Below are positions 8,630 through 62,052 of a DNA stretch of 64,000 nt, in pieces. The DNA is from Bdellovibrionales bacterium. Lineage in GTDB: Bacteria > Bdellovibrionota > Bdellovibrionia > Bdellovibrionales > JAUICD01. Within the stretch, counting starts at the first letter, position 1, and each line of letters begins with the position of its first letter. The position numbers and the translations under genes are program-made. A model generated the notes under the pieces. It was not told the origin of the DNA and did not search any database. It saw only the letters and a program-made list of their open reading frames with translations. Where the stretch lies: contig OZ253553.1 in NCBI GenBank assembly GCA_965262715.1, positions 1,504,001-1,568,000 on the forward strand, read 5' to 3'.

Positions 8630-9121
8630 ATGAACAATCCGCCATCTCATCAAATGAGGAATGTATCCAATAGCATAGATAGCTTTATATTTATATTTGT
8701 ATTTGTCTTTGTCATTTTATTTTTCTTTTTAACCTTATGGCTTTTTAACAGAGGACCAATAGATGAAGCTGTTGAATCACAAGCTTCTATCTTTACATCA
8801 GAGGAAAGAACACAAAGAGATCAAACATGGTATACATCTTCTCCTGCTGTTATTGAAAAAGGGGGACAGCTTTTTGAGATTATGGTACTTGATGACTTGC
8901 GGCCCATCTTTGATCTGATAAAAGCTGGAGAGTATGGTAGTACAGAGGTAGAGTTATATCGAGTTTTAACTCATGGACTACCAGGTACAATATTCCGTAG
9001 ATGGGATTATTTACCACGTGATGTTCGTTGGCAAATGGTACATTATATACGCTCTGAAATGTCAGAACCTCAAATGGCCACAGCTGATGAGTGGGAAGCA
9101 CTTAAAGAAGAAGGTATTTAG
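8630..9121 (+). CDS. membrane-anchored cytochrome c-like protein lacking CxxCH
   Basis: One TM helix; 'GGQLF...GST..ELYRVLTHGLPGT....YLPRDVRWQMVHYIRS' resembles class I cytochrome c; the protein has no Cys. Confidence 0.5.
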   Translation: MNNPPSHQMRNVSNSIDSFIFIFVFVFVILFFFLTLWLFNRGPIDEAVESQASIFTSEERTQRDQTWYTSSPAVIEKGGQLFEIMVLDDLRPIFDLIKAGEYGSTEVELYRVLTHGLPGTIFRRWDYLPRDVRWQMVHYIRSEMSEPQMATADEWEALKEEGI

Positions 9122-9455
9122 AACTCATCTCAAAATTACTTCCCGTGCTCACATTTTCAAAACAACCTGTTTCCCTAAAAATGAACTGGCCTCTCGAGGC
9201 GAGCCTCTTGAGGCAAGCCTCTTGAAGCGAGCTTCTTGAGGCGAGCCTCTGGTTGTTTTTGGGTAACCAGCCTGACGGTTCACACTACGGGATGTATCCC
9301 TACGGGATGTATCCCCGTCAGTAAAATGCTGGCTACCTCAAAAATCTGTTTATTTTGAGTAGGGTAGATATCTCTCATTTTTTTACGCAATGTTAAGGGA
9401 AATGCTTTTATTTCTCAACGGATGATATAAAACTTTGTTTTTGAGATGGCTTCTA
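9119..9455 (+). mobile_element. MITE-like palindromic element, family A copy 1 (longest; imperfect 17-bp terminal inverted repeats)
   Basis: Ends TAGAACTCATCTCAAAA ... TTTTGAGATGGCTTCTA; nested hairpin; 4x 14-bp CCTCTYGAGGCRAG-like unit; 2x TACGGGATGTATCCC. Confidence 0.75.
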
Positions 9456-9761
9456 ATAACAAATACCCAAGTATCTTTTAATAAGAATACAGAACAACCT
9501 TTGCCATAAATTGTTTCAAATTGAGTCAATTGAAAATTGACTAGATGATATTTCTAAAGATATTCACCTTATTGTTGTGTTGTTCTACATAGCAAATTTT
9601 ATCGTTCTAAGGTTATGGACATCGAAAAGACAGCATATGAGAATATTTTTTTTTATTAAAATAAAAATTCCGAAAAAAGTAACTCAAGTTGATATACAAC
9701 TCTACCGAAGTCTTATTTAGAAACTAAAAATAATAGAGGTCTATATAATAGAGGTGTATAT

Positions 9762-12700
9762 ATGAGTGAAGAAAAAGAAAATAATACTAATACAAAGAAA
9801 AAGAACCTGTATTCCTGTTTAAAGCCGTATAAAAGCTTATTTCTCTCTAAAAATCAAAAGCTGAATCAAATTGGCTATTCTGTATTTATTGCCCTATTCT
9901 TCGTCATTTTTTCATTCCAAAACTGTAAAGAAGGCAATATTGATAACGGAAATAACGTAGAATCAAGCGAAACACCTGATACTACTCAACCGATTACACC
10001 AACAGACCCAACCTTCGAGCCTGTAAAGCCAAATTCTCCTCCTCTAGGCAGTCTGATAGCTTATTTGTCTGATGATACAGAAAAAACACCCCAAGATGAA
10101 TTTGATTCACAACAACAAGTCATCTTGGAATTTATAGAGTTTCACCGAAGTTCTAATAGTTTTCAGTGGACTATCTCTAGGGGTTTTGAAACCATTACAG
10201 AACCTCAAGTTACAACTCAGTCAAATTACGAAACTTCTTTTTCTCAAAAAGGGGCTTATGATGCCTTTTCTACATCTCATATAGCTGGAGATCCCAAAAT
10301 ATTAAGTCGTGCAAGCAAAAGATTAACTATCGGCGAAGAGTGCGATCCTTCAGAGATTTTAGAGATAAAAGTTGGAAGCGGCTCTTTAGTGAAAGGAGGG
10401 ACAGTTACTCTTGAATTAGAAAACTCCCAGCTATTTAATAATGTTAGTTGGAAAATTCAACAAGATTCACAAAGCCTATTAGCAGAAACTCAACAAACTG
10501 CGACAGTGAGTTTACCAGAGCAAGGGGGGTCTTCGCTCATTGTTGAAGTGACTGCTGTAAGTAATGATTCAACTAGAGACCAATGTATGATTTACAGAAA
10601 AAAGGAGCTTCAAGTCAATGAAAATGCTAAGCCCCATTTTAATATTGTCAGACCTGTTGATGATACTCATCCTGTTACTTTAGAAAATAATGAGGTCTAT
10701 AAATATAAAAGAACAAGTCAGTCAAAATACATTGAAATTTTAATCACAGGTGCAAGCGAATGCCGTTGGGATGGAAATGTTATTGCTTGTAATAACGGGC
10801 AGTGGGATATCACTCGAGAGGACCTGGTCATCTCAGAATGCAGTCAAGCTGTGAACACTCTTGATGTCTCTTACCTTGATGGCAACAATGATTCACAAGA
10901 GGAACAAAGAAGCTACTATAAATTTTGTCCACAAGATCAGGATATTTGCTATTTTGGTCCTTTAAATGCACGGCCAGTCCATCATGATTGCGGTAATAGT
11001 AGAACAATACAAACTGTAACTACGACTACAACGACTACACCAACTACAACGACTGCAACGACTGCAACGACTGCAACGACTACAACGACTACAACAACTC
11101 CACAATCAGCTTGCTCATCAGTGCAGAAAGCACCAGGTTACAGAGATGTCAATGGGCAATGCTTGAAATCTTGCCAGACTGCAGGTGGGACTCATACAGG
11201 ATCCGACTGTGACCCAGGTGAAGGATATGACCTTGTATTGATAGTAGGGACTTATGAAGATCCTTGTTGCAGACAAATACCCAGACAGGCTGTTAATGGT
11301 CAATGCAATAACAATAATCAAAATACTTGTCTTGCAGGTACACCTACTCCTCAAGCATCTAGTGGTGGGTTTTATAGATGGCATTGTAATGGTAGCAGTG
11401 GAGGCACAAATGCCGCTAATTGTCAGAAGGCTCAACCAAACAATCGAATAAACGGAGTTTGTAATAATAACCTTATAAATGGTTGTAGTCCAGGAAATGC
11501 TGTCGCTAAGACACCTAGTGGTGGATTTTATAGATGGGATTGTCAAGGAATAAATGCGGGCACAATTGCTACTGGTTGTCAAAAAGCTATTTCAGTTAGT
11601 GGTATATGTAGCACCTCTAATCATTTTGAATGTACCTCAGGTAGAGCTGACAATAAAATCGAGTTGACAGAAGCTTATACATGGCATTGTGTTGGATCGA
11701 ATGGAGGTGTAACTGCTGGAAATTGTCGAAAAAGTAAACCCATCAATGGCCAGTGCAATAATGACACTAAAAATGCTTGTCTTGCAGGCACATCTGTTCC
11801 TCAAACAGCCAGTGGTGGATTTGATAAATGGCACTGTAATGGCTCTAATACAGGTGCAAACGCCACTAATTGTCAGAAGGCTCAAGCCGTTAATGGCCAA
11901 TGTGATAGCACTCAAAAGGATGGTTGTCTCACAGGCCAATCTGATCCTCAAGCTGAAAGTAATGGATTTTATAATTGGTATTGTAGAGGTGAGCATGACG
12001 GTAGCGATGCAACTTGTAAACTCAGTGCAGGATCTAGATGCAATTACCCTGATACAATTGCAGACTACATCAACAGCTGCAAAAGTGGAACTACTTCCTC
12101 AGACAGAATAGATGACAATAACTATTATAGATGGGCATGTGGTGATGAAGAGTGTCAGAGACTTAAACCATTTCATGGCGAATGTAGTCCTACGCAAAAG
12201 GGTCAATGCGCTCGTGGTATAGCAGGTACAGTAGAGAAGCAAGTGGAAAGTTATGTGAACTCTGGTTATTACATTCTACCAGAGGTTCCTAATCCAAAAG
12301 CTACATCTAAAGCAATTAATGAAAATGAAAAGTATGACCTTAGCACCCTTGATGAAATTTGGTCATGTGAAGGAGGGGCAAGTAAAGTTTATTGTAGACA
12401 AACTCAAACTTTTGATGGTGAATGTCCTACTGATCCTCCTACATACAATGCAAAAAATGATTTTATTAATTATTGCAAACAAGGTTATGTAGCAAATATA
12501 AGAGGGGATGATACGGATGAGTACACATGGAGTTGTTACTATAGTTACGGCGGAAGAATTAGAGATGCATGTACAAGACAGAAACTTGGTGCTCCACCAG
12601 CTTCTCAAATAAAATCTCAAGGAGAATGCAGTGCTACAAGAAGACAGTGCCGAGGAGGAACTGTAGGTAACTATAAGACAAAACGGATTGCAACTAAGTA

Positions 12701-13022
12701 CAATAATGGAGGAAGAATTTCTGACAGGACTCTTACTCTTTATACTTGGGAGTGTGTAGGATCAGGATCATCTGCAACAACTCAGAAATGTAAAGATGTA
12801 AGTAGTGTATTTGTTGGTGAATGTGATAACACTGAAGTAGATCAGTGTGCTGGAGGAATCTTATATGATCTTGATGATTCAGACACACATTACAGATGGC
12901 TGTGTTTTGGTTCTACTCCAAAAAGTGATCAAAGAAATAAGGGTAACATTGCTTATTGTAGTAAGCCTAAATTTCAAGTTATTGAAGACAGTAGTGGAGT
13001 ACAGGTCATACGTCCTTTCTAA
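9762..13022 (+). CDS. large Cys-rich repeat surface lipoprotein
   Basis: Lipobox 'FSFQNC'; Thr-rich linker; about ten ~50-aa G-x-C...C..G......W.C.G...C repeats. Confidence 0.8.
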   Translation: MSEEKENNTNTKKKNLYSCLKPYKSLFLSKNQKLNQIGYSVFIALFFVIFSFQNCKEGNIDNGNNVESSETPDTTQPITPTDPTFEPVKPNSPPLGSLIAYLSDDTEKTPQDEFDSQQQVILEFIEFHRSSNSFQWTISRGFETITEPQVTTQSNYETSFSQKGAYDAFSTSHIAGDPKILSRASKRLTIGEECDPSEILEIKVGSGSLVKGGTVTLELENSQLFNNVSWKIQQDSQSLLAETQQTATVSLPEQGGSSLIVEVTAVSNDSTRDQCMIYRKKELQVNENAKPHFNIVRPVDDTHPVTLENNEVYKYKRTSQSKYIEILITGASECRWDGNVIACNNGQWDITREDLVISECSQAVNTLDVSYLDGNNDSQEEQRSYYKFCPQDQDICYFGPLNARPVHHDCGNSRTIQTVTTTTTTTPTTTTATTATTATTTTTTTTPQSACSSVQKAPGYRDVNGQCLKSCQTAGGTHTGSDCDPGEGYDLVLIVGTYEDPCCRQIPRQAVNGQCNNNNQNTCLAGTPTPQASSGGFYRWHCNGSSGGTNAANCQKAQPNNRINGVCNNNLINGCSPGNAVAKTPSGGFYRWDCQGINAGTIATGCQKAISVSGICSTSNHFECTSGRADNKIELTEAYTWHCVGSNGGVTAGNCRKSKPINGQCNNDTKNACLAGTSVPQTASGGFDKWHCNGSNTGANATNCQKAQAVNGQCDSTQKDGCLTGQSDPQAESNGFYNWYCRGEHDGSDATCKLSAGSRCNYPDTIADYINSCKSGTTSSDRIDDNNYYRWACGDEECQRLKPFHGECSPTQKGQCARGIAGTVEKQVESYVNSGYYILPEVPNPKATSKAINENEKYDLSTLDEIWSCEGGASKVYCRQTQTFDGECPTDPPTYNAKNDFINYCKQGYVANIRGDDTDEYTWSCYYSYGGRIRDACTRQKLGAPPASQIKSQGECSATRRQCRGGTVGNYKTKRIATKYNNGGRISDRTLTLYTWECVGSGSSATTQKCKDVSSVFVGECDNTEVDQCAGGILYDLDDSDTHYRWLCFGSTPKSDQRNKGNIAYCSKPKFQVIEDSSGVQVIRPF
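11013..11100 (+). repeat. ACN-rich tandem repeat encoding a poly-Thr linker
   Basis: (ACGACTRCA)n tract; protein TTTTTTTPTTTTATTATTATTTTTTTT. Confidence 0.9.
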
Positions 13023-13077
13023 ACACACTACTTATCAGGGATGCATGATCTGAAGTAAGAAGTTTATAGTAAAGACA

Positions 13078-13158
13078 GGCCTTGTGTTGCACAAACATCA
13101 CTTTAGTTAATATGCCAGAGACTTGTAACAGGCTTCTTCCATAAGCAGCAGGCGACCC
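13078..13158 (+). repeat. dispersed repeat family C, partial copy
   Basis: Matches the reverse complement of about 34828-34908 (ggccttg..ttgcacaaacatca..ctttagtt..tatgccagaga...ggcttcttccataagca.caggc.accc). Confidence 0.8.
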
Positions 13159-13286
13159 TCTCGAGGCAAGCCTCTCGAGGCGAGCCTCTGGCTGTTTTTT
13201 GGCAATCAGCTTGGAGGTTTGCACCTTCAAAAAATGCTGTTACACATCCTCAAAAACCCATTCATCTTTAGTAGAAACTATTCTAG
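13157..13286 (+). repeat. palindromic element family A, copy 2 (fused to a family C copy)
   Basis: cctctcgaggcaagcctctcgaggcgagcctctggctgtttttt...ttcatctttagtag. Confidence 0.8.
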
Positions 13287-13483
13287 GGGCTATTATCATT
13301 GCTTAGATAGCAAATACCCTCAATAATGTCATTTTCACAACTTTTCATAAAACATGATATTGATGAAATACATTCTAATTATTTTAACTTTATAATTAGG
13401 ATATATTGACAGCTTTTCTTAACTTGTGTCAATCTAGCTTTGTTGGTTAAACATAAATAAAAAAACTTAAAGTTTAAAAGATT

Positions 13484-14332: not shown

Positions 14333-14342
14333 AACCATTTAT

Positions 14343-15338
14343 TTGAGGGGTATAATCATTAAACTTTCTTTTGCATTTGGGTTTTCTTTTTTAATTTCTC
14401 AGGTAGCCTTTGGCCAGAGCAGCTATCTTCCTATACAAGCATCTAAAATTTCAAGGTCTGTAGATTCTCTCTATAACTTTCTAACCTTTACGAGTTTGAT
14501 TGTTTTTGCGATCTTGATGGGAGCTGTTTTATTTTTTATCTTAAAGTATAGCCGCAAGACAGAAGATCAAAAAACACCTTATATCACAGAAAATTACACT
14601 TTAGAGTTTATCTGGAGTTTTGTACCTTTAGTGATTTTCTTGTTAGTGTTTTATTGGGGATGGATTGTTTATAAGGATACCCGGCAATTTCCAGAAGATG
14701 CTATCACTATACAAGTGACAGGTTTTCAATGGGCTTGGAGTATGCAATATGCTAACGGCAAAAAAACATCTAATGAAATAACAGTTCCATTAGGCAAGAG
14801 AGTTGTTTTAAACATGCGCTCATTAGATGTACTGCATAGCTTTTTTGTTCCTAGTTTTCGTATTAAACAAGATGTCGTGCCAGGCTACATCTCTAAACTA
14901 TCTTTTATTCCAATCAAGGTAGGAAGATACCACATTTTTTGCGCTGAATATTGTGGGACAGAGCATTCAGGTATGATGGGTTGGGTGAATGTGGTAGAAT
15001 CCTATGAATATGAGGAGTTTTTAAACAGAGATGATGCAGAGGGAATACCACTTACCCAGCTAGGTGAGACAACATACAAAAACCTTTGCATAGTTTGTCA
15101 CTCAATTGATGGTTCTCAAATCATAGGTCCTTCCTTTAAGGGCATTTATGGCCGTCGTCAGACTCTTGCTGATGGGGCTGTGGTGGAAAGTGATGATAAT
15201 TATATACGTAACTCTATTTTAAACCCGGAAGGACAGATTGTCTCAGGTTATCCTACAGGTCAAATGCCAGCATTCCAAGGCCTATTAGACGAAGAGCAAA
15301 TTACACAATTGATTGAATATATGAAAACACTGAAGTAA
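14343..15338 (+). CDS. ctaC: cytochrome c oxidase subunit II with C-terminal cytochrome c domain (caa3 type)
   Basis: DVLHSF, CAEYCGTEHSGM CuA motif, CIVCH heme motif. Confidence 0.96.
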   Translation: MRGIIIKLSFAFGFSFLISQVAFGQSSYLPIQASKISRSVDSLYNFLTFTSLIVFAILMGAVLFFILKYSRKTEDQKTPYITENYTLEFIWSFVPLVIFLLVFYWGWIVYKDTRQFPEDAITIQVTGFQWAWSMQYANGKKTSNEITVPLGKRVVLNMRSLDVLHSFFVPSFRIKQDVVPGYISKLSFIPIKVGRYHIFCAEYCGTEHSGMMGWVNVVESYEYEEFLNRDDAEGIPLTQLGETTYKNLCIVCHSIDGSQIIGPSFKGIYGRRQTLADGAVVESDDNYIRNSILNPEGQIVSGYPTGQMPAFQGLLDEEQITQLIEYMKTLK

Positions 15339-15608
15339 TAAAAGAAGGAGAAGACAGGAATAAAAAAGTTTCCCTAACATGATTTGAAGAAATGAAGATA
15401 TTCTTTCTACTGAAAATGAACAAGTTTTTGAGGCAGTCAGCATTTTCTTGAAGACGTGAGTCTTCAGGCTGAGTGCCCAAAAATAGCCAGAGGCTCGCCT
15501 CGAGAGGCTAGTTCATTTTTAGTGAGACAAGACGAAGAGCAAATTACGCAATTGATTGAATATATGAAAACATTGAAGTAATAAAAAAAGGAGAAGATAG
15601 AAGAAAAA
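15288..15608 (+). repeat. ~80-bp direct duplication of the ctaC 3' end and downstream RBS (15288-15367 / 15531-15608)
   Basis: gacgaagagcaaattac[a/g]caattgattgaatatatgaaaaca[c/t]tgaagtaataaaa.aaggagaaga occurs twice. Confidence 0.9.
15368..15530 (-). repeat. palindromic element family A, copy 3
   Basis: Reverse complement reads tgtctcactaaaaatgaactagcctctcgaggcgagcctctggct...gttcattttcagtag...catgttagggaaac. Confidence 0.85.
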
Positions 15609-15703
15609 AGTTTCCCTAACATAATGTAAAGAGATGAGGAGGATCTCCTCTATAGTTTCCTTAACATTTTGTTAACTGATAAAAAGATACTTTTTAGTGA
15701 AAC
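15609..15703 (-). repeat. palindromic element family A, degenerate internally deleted copy 4
   Basis: Both ends retained (gtttccctaacat ... tttttagtgaaac), plus ggagatcctcctcat as at 17380. Confidence 0.6.
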
Positions 15704-15728
15704 AAAAGAAGGAGAAGAATAAGTAAAT

Positions 15729-17378
15729 ATGTCAAATCAAGATACACTTCCAAAAGGAAAATCAGGCAATCAGGCAGCCCGGCAATCGGGCAGTCAGGCA
15801 AGCGGGCAAACGAATTATCTTAACCATGAAAAAGGTTTATGGTCTTGGTTGACAACATTAGACCATAAACGCATTGGTTTGATGTACTTTATAGTGATAT
15901 CTTTCTTTTTCTTTTTAGGTGGTATTTTTGCTCTTTTAATACGTTTGGAGCTTATTGCACCTGGGCAGCAATTTTTTGGTGCTGATACCTACAATCAGTT
16001 CATGACATATCACGGTGCTATTATGGTCTTTTTAGTGATCATACCTGGAATACCTGCATTTTTAGGTAATTTTATTTTGCCTCTACACATAGGGGCAAAA
16101 GATGTGGCATTTCCTAGGCTGAACCTCCTTAGTTGGTATCTTTTATTGATTGGAGCAATCGTCGCTGTGTCTTCTCTATTTTTTGGTGGCGTGGATACAG
16201 GTTGGACTTTCTACACTCCATACAGTTCTTTAAAATCACAAGGAGGGGTCGCTTTTATGACCTTTGGAGCTTTTATCGCTGGTTTTTCTTCTGTTCTGAC
16301 TGGGCTTAACTTTATAGCCACCATCCACAATCTGCGAGCTCCCGGAATGACTTTTGGCCGCATGCCTTTATTTGTTTGGAGTCTCTATTCTACAGCTATT
16401 TTGCAAGTCATAGCCACACCTGTTTTAGCTATCACTCTTTTGCTTTTAGTTATGGAAAAAGCATTTGGAGTAGGGATATTTGATGCATCTTTGGGTGGAG
16501 ATCCTATTTTGTTTCAACACTTTTTTTGGTTTTACTCTCACCCAGCAGTTTATATTATGATTTTACCTGCCATGGGTATTATTAGTGAATTGATAACAAC
16601 TTTTTCTCGTAAGACAATATTTGGTTACAGAGCCATTGCTTATTCGAGTGTTACTATTGCTGGCATTAGCTTTTTTGTATGGGGACATCACATGTATGTG
16701 AGTGGTCAATCTGAGCTAGCAAATATGATTTTCTCTATATTAACTATGTTAGTAGGAGTCCCAACGGCTATAAAAACTTTTAACTGGGTAACTACTATGT
16801 ACAAAGGCTCTATTCTTTTAGCTTCTCCCATGCTTTATGCTATTGGATTTTTATTTATATTTACCATTGGAGGGCTTACAGGGATCTACCTTGCAACTAT
16901 TGCTCTTGATGTGCATTTGCACGACACCTATTTTGTGGTGGCACATTTTCACTATGTGATGGTGGGAGGAACCATCATGGCCCTTATGGGAGGCATTTTG
17001 TATTGGTATCCTAAAATGTTTGGAAAATTATATAATGAATTTATTGCAAAGCTATCATGGATTTTTGTTTTTATAGGCTTTAACGTGACTTTCTTTCCGC
17101 AGTTTATTTTAGGCAATCTAGGTATGCCTCGTAGATATCATGATTATCTTCCTGAGTTTGCCAATTTAAATCTTATTTCTACAATAGGTTCATGGATGAT
17201 TGCTATAGGGCTTTTCTTTGTACTTGCTTGTTTATTAGAAGGTTTTTTCTCTGATCGCAATGCGCCTGCAAATCCATGGGGGGCTAAAACATTAGAATGG
17301 CAAACACCATCTCCTCCTCCACATGACAACTTTAAAGAAACTCCAATTGTCAAAGGTGGTCCTTATGAATATCGTTAG
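15729..17378 (+). CDS. ctaD: cytochrome c oxidase subunit I
   Basis: [41 protein letters not shown]. Confidence 0.99.
15765..15812 (+). repeat. tandem octamer array (x6, 48 bp) in the ctaD N-terminus
   Basis: GGCAATCA GGCAGCCC GGCAATCG GGCAGTCA GGCAAGCG GGCAAACG. Confidence 0.9.
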
Positions 17379-17572
17379 AGGGAGATCCTCCTCATTTTTT
17401 AACAACATGTTGAGCTGGACCCTCAATTTATTTCTTAAATTTAAAATCATTGCCCTGAGGCCAGACTCTTTCCCCTTCTTATCATTAGCTTTTATCACCA
17501 CTTGCTTACTTAGCTTTCGATGGTTATTGTTTTTAAATAGAAGAGTTGAACGCGAATGGTAATAAGGAAATC
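17378..17572 (+). repeat. family A 3' half carrying a ~150-bp internal insert (copy 5)
   Basis: Aligns with 43435-43630; starts at the ctaD stop codon. Confidence 0.85.
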
Positions 17573-17587
17573 GTTTTATCTTTTTAA

Positions 17588-17872
17588 GAGAGGATTCTAT
17601 GGGTATTGTTAAGCCTTCCGTTGAACATCATCATGCACATTGTTTCCCTAAAGATGAACCAGCCTCTGGCTGTTTTTGGACAGTCAGCCTGAAGACTTAC
17701 GTCTTCAAGAAAAAGCTGACTGTCTCAAAAATCTGTTCATTTTTAGGAAGGAGATTCTCCTCATTTTTTAATAACATGTTAAGGAAATCTTTCCTTTGTT
17801 TAATAACCTATTTAAAGTTGAGAGAATCTTATGGCTATTGTTAAACCTGCTATTGAACATCATCATGCACAT
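17588..17872 (+). repeat. ~53-bp direct duplication of the ctaE RBS and 5' end (17588-17640 / 17820-17872)
   Basis: MGIVKPSVEHHHAH versus MAIVKPAIEHHHAH. Confidence 0.9.
17641..17789 (+). repeat. palindromic element family A, copy 6
   Basis: tgtttccctaaagatgaaccagcctctggctgtttttggacagtcagcctgaagac...gttcatttttagg...atgttaaggaaatc. Confidence 0.88.
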
Positions 17873-18481
17873 CATTTTGATTCGGCTGAGCAAGAATACC
17901 GTACATCTAAGTTTGGAGTGTGGTTATTTATGGTCACAGAAATCCTTATGTTTGGAGGTCTTTTTGTTGGCTTTGCCCTTTTTAACAATATTTATCCAGA
18001 GATTTTTGAAGAAGGTGCGACCTTTCTAGATTGGAAACTAGGAACTATTAATACTGCTGTTCTTTTAACAAGTTCTCTAACAATGGCACTTGGCATTCAT
18101 TACATTCAGGTGAACAAGAGAGATGCTGCCTTTTGGAACCTTATAGCCACAATAGCTTGTGGCGCTATTTTTATGATGATCAAATATTTTGAGTACACTC
18201 ATAAGTTTCATTTAGGCATCTTTCCTGGAGCCGAGTTTGCCTATGAAGGTGCTACACAAACAAAAAATTTAGCTTTGTATTTTAGCTTTTATTTTTGTAT
18301 GACAGGCCTACACGGTATTCACGTTTTAGCAGGGATGAGCCTGATTGCTTGGGTGACTTACCGACATTACCGTGGAGACTTTAACCCTAATTACTTTACA
18401 GCAGTTGAAGGTGTAGGGCTTTTTTGGCATATTGTAGATTTAATTTGGATCTATTTATTTCCACTTTTGTACTTGGTATAA
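17831..18481 (+). CDS. ctaE: cytochrome c oxidase subunit III
   Basis: GVWLFMVTEILMFGGLF, MTGLHGIHV, GLFWHIVDLIW. Confidence 0.97.
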   Translation: MAIVKPAIEHHHAHHFDSAEQEYRTSKFGVWLFMVTEILMFGGLFVGFALFNNIYPEIFEEGATFLDWKLGTINTAVLLTSSLTMALGIHYIQVNKRDAAFWNLIATIACGAIFMMIKYFEYTHKFHLGIFPGAEFAYEGATQTKNLALYFSFYFCMTGLHGIHVLAGMSLIAWVTYRHYRGDFNPNYFTAVEGVGLFWHIVDLIWIYLFPLLYLV

Positions 18482-18571
18482 CTAATAACCGCTGCTATTT
18501 CAATATAATTTACTGAATACAACAACGTCATGAACACTTATTAGAGTACTGACCATAAAAGGTTATAAAAT

Positions 18572-19942: not shown

Positions 19943-20113
19943 ATTTTTATCAGAGAATATTAGAGATCAATATGATACCATCACACTCTATTAAACTGCT
20001 TACCAGATGCAAAAATGTTTAAATACTCTTGTGGCTTGGTACTCATATTACCTTGATAAAGTATTTGACAATTAATAAATAAGTATAAAAAATACTTCAT
20101 GTAAGAGGGTTTT

Positions 20114-43299: not shown

Positions 43300-43630
43300 T
43301 GTCCTCACTAAAAATAGACCAGCCTCTCGAGGTGAGCCTCTCGAGGCGAGCCTCTGGCTGTTTTTTGGCAATGACCACGACGATTAGCATCCTCGCAAAA
43401 TAGTCATTGCCTAAAAAATCCGTCTATTTTTAGTAGGGAGACTCCCTTCGTTTTGTAACATAATGTTGAGCTGGACCCTCAATTTATCCAGCTAATTTCA
43501 AAATCATTGCCCTAAGGCCAGACTCTTTCTCATTTTTATCATTAGCTCTTATCACTTCTTATTCTTTTGGCCTTCAATATTTAGTTTTCTCAAATAGAGG
43601 AATTGAACGCAAATGATAATAAGGAAATCG
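43300..43630 (+). repeat. palindromic element family A, copy 7, with ~150-bp insert
   Basis: Stems ctaaaaatagac/gtctatttttag and ggcaatgac/gtcattgcc; insert shared with 17412-17563. Confidence 0.88.
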
Positions 43631-46817: not shown

Positions 46818-46893
46818 GCTAAAAGCAGCATTAAACAAAAAATCAAAACATAAATAACTAGACAAAAAGATGAGTTCCTACTAAAATAATAGC

Positions 46894-50590: not shown

Positions 50591-50679
50591 ATATTATTTT
50601 TGATTTTAATTTATCCTTGGAAAAGAATAAACGAAACCATTATAGAAATAAAAACTGTGTACAAGGACTTTAATTCTAC

Positions 50680-51650: not shown

Positions 51651-52015
51651 CGCCTAAACTCCCTTTTTAATATATTTTTCTTATTATTATTGTAATAAGT
51701 CCTTATCGATAAAGATGAACAAAAACTTAAACAAAAAATTATCCATTTTTATACTATTGTTTATATTTGATACACGTCTATAAAGTTTTTCTTAAGGTGT
51801 ACCAAAAAGAGTTATAAGCCTTTGAAATAAACATCAAAGTAGAACCTTTTTCTAAAAAACAATTCTCTATCTCCGTCAATCAGATTTCAGGCAAAGCTGG
51901 TAAACTGGATCTGGCAACAATTGATAGGAATCCATTATCGGTGTATCTATTTTTCAGAGAAAATAAATAAAGTTCATAGCTAAAAGCTGCTTACCTTTTA
52001 ATAAGCTATAAAAGG

Positions 52016-52109
52016 TTGATATTGATGGCAAAGGATTGTTCTTCCACAGATGAGATCACTTGAAAGAGTGATCTCATCGAGGACTACAAGGCTTTGCCAT
52101 CAATATCAA
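52016..52109. repeat. nested inverted repeat (18-bp outer stem, 12-bp inner stem) downstream of lpdA
   Basis: ttgatattgatggcaaag/ctttgccatcaatatcaa; gatgagatcact/agtgatctcatc. Confidence 0.85.
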
Positions 52110-52138
52110 AATAAAAAGTTCTAGATTTTTAGTATTTC

Positions 52139-53533: not shown

Positions 53534-53579
53534 CTTTATCATCTCCTTGCTTATCAACTTGAATCACAATAAATATTTC

Positions 53580-54869: not shown

Positions 54870-54965
54870 TCTCCTTTGATTTTCACCTCTTTATAGTCTT
54901 TAAAACATCACTGAAAGTAGGATTCAATCATTTTTAAAAACTCCACTAATCTCCACTTAATATTT

Positions 54966-57743
54966 TCATTGCATTTGATTTAGTGCAATCTGAATGATTT
55001 TTTGTTGTTCTAGTTTATGTCTTTGGCTGGAACCCGTTGCTGGGCTTGAACTAGGAGGTCGCCCTATGTATTTAAACTCTTTTTCTAAATTAAGGGACCT
55101 TAGCAAAGAATACATGTAAAAGCTTACAAAATGAAAGGCTCCCATATTTTGAGATTCTTCCTGAACCCAACGGATTTGCTGTAAATGAGGATAATTTGCC
55201 AAAATGTCTCTTAACTTATGGTACGGAAAAGGATAAATTTGCTCTAAGCGCAAAACAGCTTGATGTTGTTCTGATTTTTGCAAGGCTTGTTTTTCTCTTT
55301 CAGCCATCAACTCATAATAAATCTTACCTGAACAAAGAAGAACTTCCCTGACTTTATTGGGATCAATGGTGTTATCAAGTAAAATTTCCTTAAACCCTAT
55401 ATCTTCAGTACAAATCTCATCAACATGAGAAATCACTTTTGGATGTCTTAAGAGAGACTTAGGTGACATGACAATAAGAGGCTTCCTAAAGTCTCTTATC
55501 TGTTGCCTTCTCAATAAATGGAAAATTTGGGCTGGTGTTGTAGGGTAACACACTTGGATATTGTTATTAATGCACTGAGTTAGATAACGCTCCAGCCTTG
55601 CACTGGAATGCTCTGGTCCCTGTCCTTCATAACCATGAGGTAAAAGCAGCACAATGCCACTCATGCGATTCCATTTTTCTTCTGCAGACACAATAAATTG
55701 ATCAATAATCACTTGAGCTCCATTGGCAAAATCTCCAAATTGAGCTTCCCAAATTGTGAGCATCCAAGGATTAGCTGTTGAAGCTCCATAGTCAAAACCT
55801 AAAACAGCAACTTCCGACAATAAGCTGTTGTGAATAAAAAAGTCAGCCTTTCCGGGGTTTAGTCCACTCAAAGGAGAATATTCTTTTTCTGTTTGAGTAT
55901 CAAAAAACTTAGCATGTCTATGAGAAAACGTTCCTCTTACGACATCTTGACCTGTAAGACGAACACTCGTTCCTTCTAAAATGAGAGCGCCATAAGCAGC
56001 CATCTCCGCAAAAGACCAATTGATAAGTTTATTATCAACATAATTTTGATAGGCTCTTTTGTATTGCTTTTCTAATTTAGGGTGCCAATGAAACCCTTTA
56101 GGAGGATGGGTCATCGCTTCAAATGTCTTATCAACATCTGTTTTAAGAGCTGCTGTCTCTACAAATAAAAACTGAGATTGATCATCATTGACTTTTTTTA
56201 AACCCTTCCAAGCTCCTCCAATAACTTCTATTTGTTTTTTTTGTGGCTCTGATCTAACAGTCTCTAGTATTTCCTGTAGTTGTGTTATTTTATTTTTATA
56301 ATATGTTTGCACTTCATCTGCAGTCACTACACCTTCATTAATAAGCTGTTTTGACCATATTTGATAAACCGAAGGATGGTTCTTGATCACCTGGTACAAA
56401 CGAGGCTGTGTGTACATAGGCTCGTCTCCTTCATTGTGTCCATATCGACGATATCCTAAGTGTCGAATCACAATATCTGACTTAAAAGCTTTGCGGTAGG
56501 CCACTGCTATCTGCGCAACCCGCACGACAGATTCAACGGCATCAGCATTGACATGTATCACAGGAATATCACAAACCTTAGTAATATCAGAAGAATAAGG
56601 AGTTGATCTTGCCTCTTCAGGATTAGTGGTAAATCCAATTTGGTTATCAAATATAATATGGATAATACCTCCAACTTCATACCCTTTCAACTTTCCCATT
56701 TGAAATAACTCGTAAACCACCCCTTGACCTGAAAAAGCAGCATCTCCGTGCATAATAATAGGTAGAATTTGATCTTTCTTGCTATCATTTTGCAATAGCT
56801 GCTTGGCCCAAGTGCTGCCTGCAACGACAGGGGTTACTGATTCTAAATGTGAAGGATTAAATGCTAAAGAAATATGTACAGAGCCTTTTTCAGTCTTTCG
56901 ATCTGCGGAAAATCCTAAGTGATATTTGACATCACCACCTGGATTAGTGAGATGAGCCTCTACCCTACCATCAAATTCAGCTAAGACATTCTTGACAGCC
57001 TTCCCCATAAAGTTAGTGAGCACATTGATTCTTCCTCTGTGAGCCATGCCAATAATAAGCTCTTTGATAGAAGCTTGCTGTAAGATCATCTCTAGAAGTG
57101 TGATACCTGTATCATTGCCTTCTATAGAAAAACGCTTCATTCCTACAAAACGTGAATGTAGAAACTTTTCCATAGCTTCCACAGATATAAGTTCATAAAG
57201 CAGTCTCTTTTTTTGCTCTGCACTGAGACGAGGAGAAATACCCTTATTTTCAAATTCATCGATCAAGAATTTCCTCTTATCTTCAGAACAATTATTAAAC
57301 TGCACACTAAGGGTAGAACAATAAGTTTTGATTAAAGAAGAAACATCATTAAGGTTTTGAGAATTAACACTACTACTGCTTGATGAAGCATGACTATTTG
57401 TTTGAGAGGCTTCTTGCTGCTCAGGTAAGCCTAACTTTTTGTAAAGCTCTTTTGGGTCTTTGTTGATTAAGTTTAAAGGATCAAGCCTGGCATAAATATG
57501 CGCCTGATTGCGTAAGTTCTCTATAACAGACTGGCCTTCAAAAGAAGGTTGTTTTTTAGGGGCTGCACTTTGATTTAAACCAAACTCAAAACCTTCAAAA
57601 AATTTTTGCCACTGTTGATCTACAGAATCTGGCTTTTCTAGATAGTCATTGTAGAGAGATTCTATGTATTCCTTATTGCTATTTGTAAAATAATCCGCCT
57701 TATTTTTTGTTACCACCCTCTGTGTTTTTAAAAAACCACTCAT
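54966..57743 (-). CDS. sucA: 2-oxoglutarate dehydrogenase E1
   Basis: GMAHRGR, GDVKYH, HGDAAFSGQG, WEAQFGDF, GPEHSSARLER. Confidence 0.99.
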   Translation of the reverse strand: MSGFLKTQRVVTKNKADYFTNSNKEYIESLYNDYLEKPDSVDQQWQKFFEGFEFGLNQSAAPKKQPSFEGQSVIENLRNQAHIYARLDPLNLINKDPKELYKKLGLPEQQEASQTNSHASSSSSSVNSQNLNDVSSLIKTYCSTLSVQFNNCSEDKRKFLIDEFENKGISPRLSAEQKKRLLYELISVEAMEKFLHSRFVGMKRFSIEGNDTGITLLEMILQQASIKELIIGMAHRGRINVLTNFMGKAVKNVLAEFDGRVEAHLTNPGGDVKYHLGFSADRKTEKGSVHISLAFNPSHLESVTPVVAGSTWAKQLLQNDSKKDQILPIIMHGDAAFSGQGVVYELFQMGKLKGYEVGGIIHIIFDNQIGFTTNPEEARSTPYSSDITKVCDIPVIHVNADAVESVVRVAQIAVAYRKAFKSDIVIRHLGYRRYGHNEGDEPMYTQPRLYQVIKNHPSVYQIWSKQLINEGVVTADEVQTYYKNKITQLQEILETVRSEPQKKQIEVIGGAWKGLKKVNDDQSQFLFVETAALKTDVDKTFEAMTHPPKGFHWHPKLEKQYKRAYQNYVDNKLINWSFAEMAAYGALILEGTSVRLTGQDVVRGTFSHRHAKFFDTQTEKEYSPLSGLNPGKADFFIHNSLLSEVAVLGFDYGASTANPWMLTIWEAQFGDFANGAQVIIDQFIVSAEEKWNRMSGIVLLLPHGYEGQGPEHSSARLERYLTQCINNNIQVCYPTTPAQIFHLLRRQQIRDFRKPLIVMSPKSLLRHPKVISHVDEICTEDIGFKEILLDNTIDPNKVREVLLCSGKIYYELMAEREKQALQKSEQHQAVLRLEQIYPFPYHKLRDILANYPHLQQIRWVQEESQNMGAFHFVSFYMYSLLRSLNLEKEFKYIGRPPSSSPATGSSQRHKLEQQKIIQIALNQMQ

Positions 57744-57852
57744 TTTTAACCTTTCTTCTATTTACAAATGCCACCTAAAGTTTTTACAGCCAGCTTAGAT
57801 ATTAATATAAAGATGAAATAACAAGCAATAGTAAAGAGAATGTATTTTACAT

Positions 57853-58539
57853 CTAAAGCTTCATTTTACCATCATCTGTATAGATATACTCCATTTTAAT
57901 GTGTGGAAATTGATGTAATTTAAAATACATTCTTGCCAGCTTTCTGAAAACTTCTTTTTGTTCGTATTCACCAGACTTTCTAACACTGTTGATTTGACTT
58001 AGAATAAACTTTCTAGCTTCTATAGGATGAACACAAATGCCATTAAGTACTTGATATAATTTGCCTATTAGCACAAGCCGTCCTTCAAAACATTCTTTTT
58101 TTTTCAAATAAGAGATTTTTGAAATCTTATCAACTTGAGTCTTCTTATTGGTTATTAAATCTTTAATGATCACACTATCTTTATTTACCTTTATCAACTC
58201 AAACAAACTATGTTGATGATGAGAAAGAGTTTCTAATAAAGAAAGTTCATCCTTGTCTATTTTTAGACTTTCCTGAATCTTTTTTGACTCCATAACCTCT
58301 TCTATCGATGTTAGACCCGTTTGTTCAAGATGATAATCAAACAAGTACCAATCTAGAAATTGAGACATTTTGATATCAAATTGATGTGAATCTTCCTCTG
58401 AAGGCAGCAAATAGCCAAAAAAATCTTTTTTAGCAAACTCCACATCCTGTCTATAAACAGCTGCTGTGAAATATGTCACAACTTTGTCTAAGGGCTTATA
58501 ATATTTCATATAGTTTTTTTCTTCTCTATCTAAAAACAA
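57853..58539 (-). CDS. conserved hypothetical protein
   Basis: 228-aa ORF abutting rluD; 'FLDWYLFDY', 'SLFE' motifs. Confidence 0.7.
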   Translation of the reverse strand: MFLDREEKNYMKYYKPLDKVVTYFTAAVYRQDVEFAKKDFFGYLLPSEEDSHQFDIKMSQFLDWYLFDYHLEQTGLTSIEEVMESKKIQESLKIDKDELSLLETLSHHQHSLFELIKVNKDSVIIKDLITNKKTQVDKISKISYLKKKECFEGRLVLIGKLYQVLNGICVHPIEARKFILSQINSVRKSGEYEQKEVFRKLARMYFKLHQFPHIKMEYIYTDDGKMKL

Positions 58540-59553
58540 TTATTTATTTTCAATTCCACTAGCAAAGAGAATATTCAATAGATCATCTGGCCAACCCACT
58601 TCAAATTCTAAATATCGATGGTCATAAGGATGTCGAAAGCCTAATTTAGAAGCGTGCAAAGCAAGTCTTGGTAAATTTCTTATAGATTGTTGTAACTCAG
58701 GGGGTTTTAGCAAATGAATACGCTTTTTTTTACCATAAACCCAATCTCCCACAATAGGATGGTTTTGCTGTGCAAGATGTACACGAATTTGATGTGTTCT
58801 TCCTGTTCCTAATGTTAAATGTAATAGAGATACTCCATTATAAGACCGTATAACATTGTAATATGTGATAGCTTCCTTACCTTTCTGGCTCTCTTTTTGA
58901 GGCACACTATAAAAACGTTTCCTGTCTCTAGGATGTCTGGCAATTCTTGATTTAATTTGACCAGAAGATTTTTGAGGCACTCCAAAGACCAAAGCCCAAT
59001 AGCAACGTGTCACTAAGCGAGATGCAAATTGTTTGACGAGTTCTAAATGAGCAAAATTACTTTTGGCAATGACAAGTAGCCCGCTGGTGTCTTTATCAAT
59101 ACGATGGACAATACCAGGTCTATATCGATTTATTTGGTCACTTTCTAATAAACTTGTTGTTGATTTAAAAAAAGAAAGATTTTTTGTATAGCCAATCAGA
59201 GCATTCACAAGTGTGTCTTGAAAATGCCCAGCCCCTGGATGCACAACAAGGTGGGCTGGTTTATTGACCACAAGAACCCAGTGATCTTCAAAAATAATGT
59301 TGAGCTCTTGAGAAGAAGGCATAATCTGTGTCATGTTATTTTGATTTTGAGAAAGGTAAAGTGTCAGAGTATCACCTTCTTTACATTTGTAAGAAGGTTT
59401 ACAAGGTATATTATTTGCAAAAATTGAATGCTCCTGAAAAACTTTTAAAGTATTTGACCTGGACAAGAAAGGTACTTGCCTAGACACTACAATATCTGCC
59501 CTTTGACCCTTGAGCTTTTGGTCTATAAAAATAGCGATTTTTTTCTTAGACAT
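58540..59553 (-). CDS. rluD: RluA-family pseudouridine synthase
   Basis: S4-like N-terminus, NKPA.LVVHPG, RPGIVHRIDKDTSG, TGRTHQIRVH. Confidence 0.92.
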   Translation of the reverse strand: MSKKKIAIFIDQKLKGQRADIVVSRQVPFLSRSNTLKVFQEHSIFANNIPCKPSYKCKEGDTLTLYLSQNQNNMTQIMPSSQELNIIFEDHWVLVVNKPAHLVVHPGAGHFQDTLVNALIGYTKNLSFFKSTTSLLESDQINRYRPGIVHRIDKDTSGLLVIAKSNFAHLELVKQFASRLVTRCYWALVFGVPQKSSGQIKSRIARHPRDRKRFYSVPQKESQKGKEAITYYNVIRSYNGVSLLHLTLGTGRTHQIRVHLAQQNHPIVGDWVYGKKKRIHLLKPPELQQSIRNLPRLALHASKLGFRHPYDHRYLEFEVGWPDDLLNILFASGIENK

Positions 59554-60154
59554 AAAGAGCTTTGTACAAGGACATATACGAATCTACAACTCTCTTGGTA
59601 TCTAATGAGAGACATTTAGCATATTGTGAAATAAATCCTCTGACAAATACAGGAGCTGGGAGTAATTGATATTCGTTATTCTCAATAGCTATAAGATAAG
59701 GTTTTCCAATGCGTGTTATGAGAGATATCTGACTTATTGAGATATTTTTGTAATTGCGGATACTTTGTAAAAAAGGACCATCAAAAACATCTCGCTCTTC
59801 TATTTGTTTTTCAAATATGGGGTTTTTCTTATAATGACTTTTAATTGCCATATTTCTACTTAATAGCCGTTGTTTTTCTTTATGAATATTCACAGACTTT
59901 GAGATTTCTTTATCATAGGCCTTACGCCTCATAGGATGGCTCAAAATAAAATAGGCTTGATCTATAAGCTTGCGAAGGTCTTCTATTTCCTGTTTAGAAA
60001 ATACAGATAGGACATTGCGATTATGAGACGAATATGTGTTTTTAGCTCTAATATAAGCTGTGTGGATCTCTGTATTAGAAGATGAATTAGGTATTTCTAA
60101 TGTGTCATAGTATGTTCTTGTTGCTTGACTTACTTTGATCATAGGACCCATCAC
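59546..60154 (-). CDS. J-domain-like plus RodZ-type HTH protein
   Basis: 'YYDTLEI...EIHTAY' and 'AYFILSHP.RRKAYD' (no HPD motif); 'YLIAIE....LP..VFVRGF...YAK.L'. Confidence 0.8.
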   Translation of the reverse strand: MMGPMIKVSQATRTYYDTLEIPNSSSNTEIHTAYIRAKNTYSSHNRNVLSVFSKQEIEDLRKLIDQAYFILSHPMRRKAYDKEISKSVNIHKEKQRLLSRNMAIKSHYKKNPIFEKQIEERDVFDGPFLQSIRNYKNISISQISLITRIGKPYLIAIENNEYQLLPAPVFVRGFISQYAKCLSLDTKRVVDSYMSLYKALYV

Positions 60155-60342
60155 TTATTTAGTTATCAAGTGGTAAAAAATTTACATTTACATACAATTT
60201 TAACAATATAAATTCATTTTGTTAAAGAAAAAATGCACCTCATATTTTATTAGAAAAGAAGGTTGCCTTACTTACCTTAAAGGCTAATGCTATTTTTTGA
60301 TCTTGTCTACTGACATTTACTGAAACGATCTATCATAAACCA

Positions 60343-61134
60343 TCATAAAAAATATATCAACCAAGAGAAAATTGGAGTTGCAAATAAGATACTATCGATA
60401 CGATCTAAGGCACCTCCATGGCCTGGCATAAAATAGCCAGAATTTTTAACACGAGCATTACGTTTTAAAAGGGATTCAAAAAAATCTCCAATTTGCCCTG
60501 CAAAAGCAGTGATTATGCAAGTGGAGATGAAAAACATAGCAGATAAATTTGTATACCAAAGAAAATAGCAAATATAACCTGCCAACCCTGATCCGCAAAG
60601 GCCACTTAAAGAGCCAATCCATGTCTTCTGAGGGGATAAATGAGGGAGTACCTTTTTCTTTCCCCAAAGATAACCAAAGATATAAGCCATAGTATCTCCA
60701 ACAAATATGATAGCACAAAGGGTAATAAGCAGCCTTATATCAAGTTTAAGCATTTCTATGATTAAAGACGGAATATACCCTAAATAAACCACCCCAAAAG
60801 CCATAGCAAAAATAAACCATTGATGTGTTTTTTGAGAGGATTTTAACAGTTCATTGAAAATCAGAATGAGAGATAAAGAGGGTATTAAAATATATAGATA
60901 GGGCAAATCTGCTCTATGCAAGCAAATTTGACAAAGCAGGATAAAACAAATCCCTGTTATGACATTTTTTTTTTGTTTTTTGTCAATTATAAGATGCATA
61001 TATTCCCATGTAGCTATTAAGCATACAAGAGTTACGTAGATCTGAATGCCTTTGATATTCCAAAAGATATATGCACCTACGAGAAGTGTAAGTGCTATAA
61101 TCGCTGAAAGACATCTTAAATAAAAGTTTTTCAT
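60343..61134 (-). CDS. cdsA: phosphatidate cytidylyltransferase
   Basis: DTMAY..G, SPQKTWIG, GDFFESLLKR...VK.SG..MPGHGGALDRIDS. Confidence 0.96.
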   Translation of the reverse strand: MKNFYLRCLSAIIALTLLVGAYIFWNIKGIQIYVTLVCLIATWEYMHLIIDKKQKKNVITGICFILLCQICLHRADLPYLYILIPSLSLILIFNELLKSSQKTHQWFIFAMAFGVVYLGYIPSLIIEMLKLDIRLLITLCAIIFVGDTMAYIFGYLWGKKKVLPHLSPQKTWIGSLSGLCGSGLAGYICYFLWYTNLSAMFFISTCIITAFAGQIGDFFESLLKRNARVKNSGYFMPGHGGALDRIDSILFATPIFSWLIYFL

Positions 61135-61164
61135 CTTTGTGAATATTTAATGTTCTTAGATTCC

Positions 61165-61866
61165 CTAAGAAATAGCACCAAATCTCCGCTTTCTTTTGTG
61201 ATAAAGGTTAATAATACGGTTTAAATCTCTTATAGAAAAGCTAGGCCAGTTTTTTTTAAGAAAAAATAGCTCAGCATAAGAGGCCTTCCAAAGCAAGAAA
61301 TTAGAAAGACGTTTTTCACCACTGGTTCGAATAATAATATCTGGATGAGGTAAAAAGTATGTTTCTAAATAGCGATGAATAAGCTCCTCTGTTATATCTT
61401 TTACTTTTATTTTCTCTAATAAAACATCCTTTGCAATATTTTGCATTGCCAGCTGGATTTCTTGTTTGCCTCCATAATTTAAAGCAATGGTTAAGGTCAT
61501 TCCTGTATTTGTTTTTGTCTTTTCTATAGATTTTTTAATTTTTTGCTGTATATCAAGAGAAAGTTTTTTTGTATATCCAATTGAGCAAAACCTTACATTG
61601 TTTTTCATCATTGTGTGGATTTCACTATCTAAGTATTTACTTAGAAGCCTCATAAGAATATCTAATTCTTTTTGTGGTCGTTTCCAATTTTCCGTGCTAA
61701 ATGCAAAAAGAGTGAGATATTTAAGCCTCTTTTTGACAGAAGCTGTAACAATGTTATGGACAGTTTCGGCTCCCATATTATGGCCATAAGTACGAGCATA
61801 CCCTTGTGTTTTTGCCCAACGGCCATTCCCATCCATAATAATTGCAATATGTTGCGGAGTATTCAC
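61165..61866 (-). CDS. uppS: undecaprenyl diphosphate synthase
   Basis: HIAIIMDGNGRWA, FSTENWKRP, RTSGE.RLSNFLLW. Confidence 0.98.
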   Translation of the reverse strand: MNTPQHIAIIMDGNGRWAKTQGYARTYGHNMGAETVHNIVTASVKKRLKYLTLFAFSTENWKRPQKELDILMRLLSKYLDSEIHTMMKNNVRFCSIGYTKKLSLDIQQKIKKSIEKTKTNTGMTLTIALNYGGKQEIQLAMQNIAKDVLLEKIKVKDITEELIHRYLETYFLPHPDIIIRTSGEKRLSNFLLWKASYAELFFLKKNWPSFSIRDLNRIINLYHKRKRRFGAIS

Positions 61867-61874
61867 TTAAACCT

Positions 61875-62052
61875 CGTTTCACTCAAAATAAACCAGCCTT
61901 TCAAGGCGAGCCTCTGGCTGTTTTTGGACAGTCAGCCTGAAGACTTACGTTACGGGATATATCCCCTTCAAGAAAATGCTGACTGCCTCAAAAATCCATT
62001 TATTTTGAGTAGAGAAAATCTCTTCATTTTTTTATAACATGTTAAGGAAATC
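61875..62052 (+). repeat. palindromic element family A, copy 8
   Basis: Stem actcaaaataaa/tttattttgagt; loop module tacgggatatatccc; tail atgttaaggaaatc. Confidence 0.88.

Follow-up and report, generated by a model that had tools for sequence, protein, structure and literature searches.

The analysed stretch of DNA, hereafter the window, is 64 kb of the chromosome of a Bdellovibrionales bacterium (G000:C1:1504001-1568000; GenBank assembly GCA_965262715.1, contig OZ253553.1) and contains copies of an interspersed DNA repeat of about 150 bp, which is designated Family A. The repeat folds into a three-way junction that is kept by matched changes in the two arms of its stems, and it is likely to be a non-autonomous mobile element moved as folded DNA by an enzyme acting in trans, none having been found in the searches; the probability of this reading is estimated at roughly 0.55. 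Mobilisation in trans, already proposed in an earlier note made from the letters of the window, follows from the size of the unit, since 150 bp holds no gene.

The source genome of the window (G000) is a single contig of 2.94 Mb with 33.6% G+C. It was compared with four other genomes of its family (G001 to G004), of which G001 belongs to the same genus and G004 to a different one. G001 was taken whole, at a marker-gene completeness of 90%, and the median identity of housekeeping orthologs between G000 and G001, which share about 1100 ortholog pairs, is 65%. The ends of Family A were fixed from the consensus of 138 near-complete genomic copies, and copies in genomes were counted with a profile of 106 distinct copies. 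As the earlier note had advised, a covariance model was built; it comprises 54 copies and, run unfiltered, recovers the window copies.

The unit consists of an outer stem, a side hairpin, an inner stem with an apical stem, and an unpaired tail. It starts with (C)TGTTTCAC, and the outer stem comprises 13 bp (CACTAAAAATRAAC / GTTYATTTTTAGT). The 5′ arm carries a side hairpin of 5 bp, CAGCC-TCT-GGCTG (agcctctggctg), followed by a T-run and a long inner stem capped by the apical stem, and the tail terminates in ATGTTAAGGAAA(TC). The element agcctctggctg had been described as a conserved side bulge; it is indeed conserved, yet it is not a bulge but a hairpin whose arms co-vary. The two ends form an imperfect inverted repeat (TTTCMYTAA...TTARKGAAA), in which the left end matches the reverse complement of the right end imperfectly over 9-12 nt. 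The right end may resemble the XerD arm of dif.

Covariation was assessed in two independent alignments. The first comprised 182 copies from two species, thinned to less than 88% mutual identity and aligned with a sequence-only profile; the second comprised 54 copies aligned with MAFFT/RNAalifold. In the first set, the 24 pairs of the side, inner and apical stems are 94.0% canonical, against 75.0% in column shuffles (maximum 76.2% among 200) and 24-47% in slid registers, and 22 of these pairs show double changes. The 13 pairs of the outer stem are 91.2% canonical versus 77.6% after shuffling. In the second set, 98.1% of the cells of 41 pairs are paired versus 83.8 ± 0.5% in shuffles, none of 500 shuffles being as high; 26 pairs are altered on both sides, and the covariation score is 0.412 versus 0.157. 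A tail hairpin, GGAGA..TCTCC, gained no support from covariation (74.6% versus 74.0% in shuffles). All the outer, inner and apical pairs that the earlier note quoted can be read in the window, and its suggestion of selection on secondary structure agrees with covariation far above shuffles in both alignments. These data support the view that selection, or the copying process, preserves the fold of Family A rather than its sequence.

Folded as DNA, the copy at 17643-17790 reaches -34.4 kcal/mol (z -8.2), which none of 200 shuffles equalled, and the bottom strand of the same copy (17641) reaches -36.5 kcal/mol (z -7.7). An RNA read off one strand is expected to show a clear excess of G:U pairs. 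With one conserved G:T pair left out, the alignment contains 138 G:T or T:G cells and 199 A:C or C:A cells. As G:T cells do not outnumber A:C cells and the two strands are alike in their folding, the constraint looks to act on DNA, or on either strand alike, and not on RNA. Of the earlier proposal of a structured RNA or a single-stranded DNA (ssDNA) substrate, the RNA half is thus not supported, the orientation of copies relative to genes being only weakly biased as well; the description as a repeat resembling repetitive extragenic palindromic (REP) sequences or Rickettsia palindromic elements (RPE) holds.

Family A is mobile. Sites in G000 and G001 were compared by protein synteny; at the DNA level both flanks could be aligned for just 23 of 350 loci, and the spacers between orthologous genes are too diverged for base-level junctions. 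Among 330 adjacent ortholog pairs conserved between the two genomes, a copy is present in G000 alone at 12, in G001 alone at 13, and in both at none, and several of the G000 insertions correspond to spacers of 14-39 bp in G001. In G001, 92 of 698 full copies have a 100% identical twin at a distance of more than 10 kb, and for 179 such a distant twin exists at an identity of at least 98%. The median best identity between copies is 96.5% in G001 and 89.5% in G000. No clean junctions were obtained from filled and empty pairs inside G000, where the paralogous repeats have diverged. No collapsed locus lies within a conserved open reading frame (ORF), which is counted in favour of a mobile element as selection against harm.

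The number of copies is high. G000 gave 484 profile matches covering 60,096 bp (2.04% of the genome) and G001 gave 1359 covering 152,552 bp (5.94%), with the strands balanced in both (231/253 and 670/689). When 185,579 species genomes were scanned with an exact pattern, Family A turned up in only two other records, both of them metagenome-assembled genomes of Bdellovibrionales. A BLAST search of 31 genomes of the order found it in G000, G001 and G004, the other 28 being without a match, and the covariance model detected 12 copies in G004 and none in G002 and G003. The G004 copies are confined to three contigs, one of which (C11) also carries a transposase 94% identical to that of G000 in spite of the different genus; for these reasons, the G004 copies may stem from contamination or recent transfer. 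Searches of plasmid and phage collections gave no match, and no metagenome contig of the Joint Genome Institute matched the full pattern. The 17 metagenome and 2 viral single matches to the right half of the pattern score at most 23.5 bits with the covariance model and were set aside as chance. The view that Family A is not a described family is borne out by Rfam, which gave no match over the window at gathering thresholds and only chance-level ones around the best copy (E 0.49-9 at E ≤ 10), and by a literature search, which returned no account of Family A or of repeats in these bacteria.

Insertion leaves no fixed target duplication: windows of 4-10 nt at the model-set ends match no better than permuted flanks, and for k = 2-9, over registers of -20 to +10 on the left and -10 to +20 on the right, the best result was 24 of 148 versus 15.5 expected. 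Some isolated copies (8 of 89 in G000, 5 of 132 in G001) have long direct repeats at their flanks that exceed the 99th percentile of controls, and several of these repeats abut the copy. In one such case (genome position 937539) 28 nt of a tRNA 3′ end are perfectly repeated on either side, and in another (1012675) the repeat comprises 25 nt with a ribosome-binding site and start codon. Most isolated copies, about 91-96%, lack any flanking repeat.

Of the targets that can be recognised, Family A itself is the commonest: new copies enter the side-hairpin loop of one already present, at the site ..CCTC|TGTTTCAC.. of this loop. In G001, a 5′ fragment of another copy, stopping in the side-hairpin loop, precedes 98 of the 698 full copies and 26 of the 80 that have an identical distant twin. 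The host copy restarts about 14 nt past the end of the incoming one; in 45 of 57 cases this is at model positions 35-59, which leaves some 8-18 positions of the host missing. The host outer arms match 6/6 in 22 of 79 nested cases, compared with 10.9% of random pairings. Ends of tRNA genes are a second target: G000 has 7 sites (6 full copies, 1 partial) at which the left end is 0-6 nt away from one, where about 0.03 would be expected by chance, and G001 has 4 such sites, at a distance of 3-8 nt. The left flanks of isolated copies share no conserved motif, the commonest base at each of 12 upstream positions reaching 30-45% (G000).

Copies are also truncated and rearranged. In G001, 287 truncations concern the 5′ end and 254 the 3′ end, and Family A is often amplified locally as tandem units of element plus flank. 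In the arrays of G001, a spacer module delimited by an inverted right end comes between successive copies; 72 of 711 copies have a perfect inverted right end upstream, which belongs to this module.

If Family A is moved in trans, the mobilising activity would recognise the fold, and lineages that keep the fold would therefore multiply. Integration would probably take place by break-and-join or strand transfer at a folded or single-stranded target, and not by staggered-cut transposition, with a preference for the element's own side-hairpin loop and for tRNA gene ends. Recombination between copies may afterwards shuffle modules and build arrays.

Several points weigh against this reading. The variation lies largely between a few discrete subfamilies, related copies can exceed shuffles without ongoing selection, and matched changes in a palindrome could arise from one arm templating the other. 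Movement in trans is deduced by elimination, no enzyme having been found, and in G001, with its 90% completeness, plasmids may be missing from the assembly. Perfect host arms occur in only 28% of nested candidates, and many of the joints may be products of recombination, not insertions. Finally, the 40-nt upstream flank of isolated copies is not more hairpin-prone than the downstream one, the mean minimum free energies being -1.43 versus -1.45 in G000 (n = 88) and -1.67 versus -2.82 in G001 (n = 132). A hairpin-rich left flank as a general target is ruled out by this comparison, and the targeting of folded DNA is therefore limited to nested and tRNA-adjacent copies.

The main rival, which we regard as rather unlikely, dispenses with a dedicated enzyme: palindromes would be spread by host replication and repair, through hairpin stalling, template switching, and illegitimate and homologous recombination, a mode of spread that has been considered for the selfish palindromes of organelles. 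It would fit the lack of target duplication, the loss of host bases at nested joints, the many 5′ fragments, tail-only pieces and tandem arrays, and the chimeric copies whose left and right outer arms belong to different subfamilies (e.g., L010, L016:461-605), as well as the fact that no classical structured-end recombinase was found in G001. Clean, complete and identical copies at distant sites in unique DNA, with sharply conserved ends, are nevertheless hard to obtain from microhomology switching alone, and isolated copies lack the hairpin-rich left flank.

No mover was identified by protein-family searches of the five genomes. Tyrosine recombinases (Phage_integrase) number 2 in G000 and 2 in G001, and serine recombinases 2 and 8, respectively. 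Of the movers suggested in the earlier note, Y1/RAYT/IS200 and IS110 transposases and reverse transcriptases were not found in G001, the genome with the most and the youngest copies. The insertion sequence (IS) with the same ends that it had envisaged was likewise not seen among the multi-copy ISs of G000 that were read: the ends TTTCACTAAAAAT / ATGTTAAGGAAA are resembled by none of 10 G000 repeat families, though not every single-copy transposase was inspected. G000 also shows no recurrent long spacing from a left to a right end.

Rather speculatively, Family A might be the bacterial counterpart of the selfish palindromes of organelles, defined by its fold, needing no transposase of any known family, and entering hairpin loops and tRNA-adjacent DNA by replacing a few host bases rather than duplicating them. 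Its driver would be a new class of enzyme, for which the multi-copy Rpn-like PD-(D/E)XK nucleases are one candidate. Matches to the Rpn-like Transposase_31 model number 19 in G000, 16 in G001, none in G002, 16 in G003 and 1 in G004. These genes alone are not sufficient as movers, because G003 has 16 of them and no copy of Family A. Many of the Transposase_31 proteins of G000, G001 and G003 (16-19 genes each) carry a C-terminal (E/K)KG(M/I)EKG repeat.

It is quite improbable that Family A is a miniature inverted-repeat transposable element (MITE) of a DDE transposase, for which IS1634-family elements with long target duplications of variable length are the best candidates. The imperfect inverted repeat of the ends would suit such an origin, and IS1634-like ISs are present in G000, G001 and G004 and were not found in G003. 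Their copies here have abutting direct repeats of 38-337 bp, which fits the target duplications of 8-514 bp given for the IS1634 family in an excerpt of PMC2266710. Duplications of this type could account for the rare long repeats beside Family A (8/89 and 5/132 isolated copies). Flanking repeats occur at most IS copies, however (ISd 10/19, ISf 7/8, ISg 3/3), unlike at Family A, and no register yields a fixed duplication of 2-9 bp. The IS ends (CCTGAGTTTGACA, CCTGACTTCG..) differ from those of Family A, and the co-occurrence in G004 is weak because of the suspected contamination or transfer. DDE_Tnp_1 matches number 54 in G000, 3 in G001, 1 in G004, none in G003 and 2 in G002, and rve matches 26 in G000 and none in G001. 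G000 is rich in ISs, which by protein reading are IS30-, IS3-, IS5-, IS256- and IS1634-like (e.g., 477449-479438, 111138-113075, 440057-442016).

Movement as ssDNA by a Y1 HUH transposase (RAYT or TnpA), as a REP/REPIN-type or IS200/IS605-derived element, is very unlikely and already largely refuted. In REP-RAYT systems, a RAYT gene flanked by repeats is expected in every carrier genome, and IS200/IS605-derived elements (palindrome-associated transposable elements, PATE) have a conserved target of 4-5 nt 5′ of the left end and an orientation biased to one replication strand. Family A resembles such elements in being rich in hairpins, without target duplication and without long inverted ends, and G000 has one single-copy Y1_Tnp (PF01797) gene. 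This gene encodes a standard IS200 TnpA, and the hairpins on its sides are its own and not those of Family A; Y1_Tnp was not found in G001, G003 and G004, while G002, with 3 such genes, has no Family A. Moreover, no conserved short target precedes the left end, copies show no replication-strand bias (83 of 161 in G000 and 212 of 441 in G001 on the leading strand), and 150 nt with a three-way junction far exceeds the size of a REP. The sole PF07282 (TnpB) matches lie in ORFs of 1343-1365 aa at model positions 18-49 and were taken as false. Y2_Tnp gave no matches, and its control gave a signal in no genome either.

A structured RNA selected within transcripts, such as a small RNA or a processing, stabilising or terminator element, is a highly improbable explanation. 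The placement of copies at gene junctions inside operons and the strong fold would be in keeping with it, as would a mild antisense excess: between co-directional genes, copies are opposite versus same in orientation in 28 versus 18 cases in G000 and 45 versus 26 in G001. It is contradicted by the lack of wobble excess and the equal folding of the strands, by the lack of any insertion site common to G000 and G001, by hundreds of copies with nested and truncated forms, and by the lack of an Rfam match. An origin from a retroelement (a short interspersed element or a group II intron fragment) was rejected, RVT_1 counting 3 in G000 and none in G001 and G004 and truncations affecting both ends, and integron attC or IS110-type targeting is not supported, with no DEDD_Tnp_IS110 in G000, G001 and G004, only the 2 Phage_integrase genes in each of G000 and G001, and balanced strands. 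The RAYT/IS200, retroelement and functional-RNA readings thus each conflict with one or more direct tests.

In the window, the covariance model found seven copies at E ≤ 0.003, five complete and two degenerate, and a tail fragment at E 0.17 (Table 1). Two further matches, at 51991 and 3093 (E 0.43 and 0.59), were taken as chance. Eight copies had been listed in the earlier note; the five complete ones and the degenerate one at 13157 stand, and those at 15609(-) and 17378 are tail fragments. The copy that had been placed at 9119 exists and is complete, with its true start at 9169 (GTTTCCCTAAAAATGAAC). The gene junctions named there are correct (ctaC/ctaD, ctaD/ctaE, pgk/tpiA, and 10 nt upstream of uppS).

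Table 1. Family A copies and fragment in the window (window positions).
Feature	Position	Strand	State and location	Model match
Family A copy	9169..9402	+	Complete; 3′ of ORF 8630-9121	Covariance model 9233-9401, 76.8 bits; nhmmer 9242-9402
Family A copy	13157..13310	+	Degenerate, without left outer arm	Covariance model 13172-13310, 32.5 bits, E 1.3e-4
Family A copy	15368..15529	-	Complete; between ctaC and ctaD	Covariance model 15369-15524, 127.1 bits
Family A copy	15610..15731	-	Degenerate	Covariance model 15611-15731, 26 bits, E 0.003
Family A fragment	17379..17410	+	Tail only; directly 3′ of ctaD stop codon	Covariance model 17361-17418, 17.7 bits, E 0.17 (weak)
Family A copy	17641..17790	+	Complete; top model match	Covariance model 17646-17787, 145.9 bits
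Family A copy	43300..43474	+	Complete; between tpiA and pgk (both - strand)	Covariance model 43306-43474, 107.1 bits
Family A copy	61876..62053	+	Complete; 10 nt upstream of uppS start (uppS on - strand)	Covariance model 61880-62050, 117.7 bits

Three of these copies have a side hairpin lengthened by 14-nt units. In the copy at 9169, the side hairpin has grown by a 14-nt unit repeated 4.4 times (9189-9250) and the apical loop holds a 15-nt unit repeated 2.1 times (9285-9315). Elsewhere in the chromosome, at G000:C1:1892747-1893034, an apical loop contains about 17 tandem 15-nt units (CCGTAGGGATACAGT-like), the same unit that is doubled at 9285-9315. The copy at 13157 starts within an expanded side hairpin (14-nt unit repeated 2.4 times, 13157-13189), and its profile match at 13181-13277 corresponds to model positions 20-113. 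The side hairpin of the 43300 copy is expanded by 14-nt units (43318-43350), and in the 61876 copy both the side hairpin and the apical loop are expanded.

The copies at 15368(-) and 15610(-) are the units of a local tandem duplication of about 241 bp (window 15300-15600), in which the final ctaC codons are repeated together with the spacer and the Family A right end; in the second of them only the tail, 15610-15649, is well preserved (model positions 110-149). The 17641 copy is flanked by a diverged repeat of the ctaE ribosome-binding site and first 14 codons (17582-17640 and 17817-17875, about 80% alike over a repeat of 49-52 nt), and a spurious ORF of 81 aa (17599-17844) runs from the first ctaE start through this copy. 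In metagenome contigs of a related population, the end of ctaD (17378) is joined straight to the 17641 copy, and the end of the copy to the start of the first ctaE repeat. Placed at 88% likeness, these contigs give no more than a hint that a later rearrangement produced the 262 bp at 17379-17640.

A second repeat, Family B (..GAGCTGGACCCTCAATTTAT...AAAATCATTGCCCTRAGGCCAGACTCTTTC..), is present at 17411-17510 and 43455-43540, where it adjoins the Family A tail at ATGTT, as if inserted there. The tail fragment at 17379 is broken by it at this motif, and the tail of the 43300 copy continues into a Family B unit. G000 also has local clusters of another small repeat, with the hairpin CGCCCACGCATGGGCG (G000:C1:482000-482392, near 476742 and 490459), and Family A stands 3 nt behind this repeat. 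In G001, copies of Family A often border genes of multi-copy, secreted-looking proteins of 630-830 aa with many repeats of about 60 aa (..GLTFKQIK..EFANISD.TIRRRLKENGYEAQG..), found at G001:C1:774965-777800, 2082684-2084756 and 1874130-1876349. The window also encodes, at 7161-8174, an ankyrin-repeat protein with a weak likeness to models of Legionella Dot/Icm Ank effectors (best E 3.9e-10, far below the cut-offs).

Among known repeats, Family A can be compared with the RPEs, reportedly described by Ogata et al. in 2000. RPEs are likewise imperfect palindromes of 100-150 bp, present in many copies in a small AT-rich genome of a single clade, with no gene of their own and no transposase identified. 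They are known for in-frame insertion inside protein genes, from which Family A differs in having no collapsed locus inside conserved ORFs; the two are set apart here by description and not by sequence. We know of no report of a three-way junction in RPEs or of their insertion into their own hairpin loop. With bacterial MITEs such as Correia/NEMIS, RUP and ERIC, Family A shares its size, intergenic and intra-operon sites, imperfect inverted ends and mobilisation in trans, and it differs from them in having no fixed target duplication and no end-matching IS among the 10 repeat families inspected. The REP/REPIN sequences are similar as intergenic hairpin repeats that keep their fold by matched changes and lack target duplication. 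They are 20-40 nt long or occur as REP doublets, whereas Family A has about 150 nt and three helices, and no RAYT/Y1 gene was found in G001. The Family A consensus has no head of the GTAG/CGTC type, as that motif is given in an excerpt of PMC3733652.

Some organellar palindromes are also comparable. According to an excerpt of PMC2670323, the mitochondrial and plastid DNA of Volvox carteri contains palindromes, single hairpins of about 50 nt, that bloat non-coding DNA, are often nested and move by a mechanism that is not known; the double-hairpin elements of Allomyces are cited there too. To judge by that excerpt, the likeness lies in hairpin repeats that swell non-coding DNA and are frequently inserted into each other, while Family A differs in its 150 nt, its conserved non-palindromic ends and tail, and its location on a bacterial chromosome. 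ISs that target REP hairpins are described in an excerpt of PMC1525189. There too, mobile DNA enters the hairpin of a resident palindromic repeat; the incoming IS has its own transposase, whereas the incoming DNA in Family A is a gene-less copy of the same repeat.

It seems, then, that Family A adds a new family to a known type of bacterial repeat and is likely to be selfish mobile DNA. Gene-less palindromic repeats of small size (REP, RPE, ERIC, the palindromes of organelles) are common, and to our knowledge the way in which most of them move, REP-RAYT and MITEs excepted, is not known. Family A offers an unusually clean case, with two complete chromosomes of one genus, one of which consists to nearly 6% of very young copies, with the usual movers apparently absent from G001, and with an insertion point that recurs in the hairpin loop of the element itself. 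Its copies break short-read assemblies and sit in essential operons such as cta and pgk/tpiA. If the mover were found, a mechanistically opaque class of repeats would be explained.

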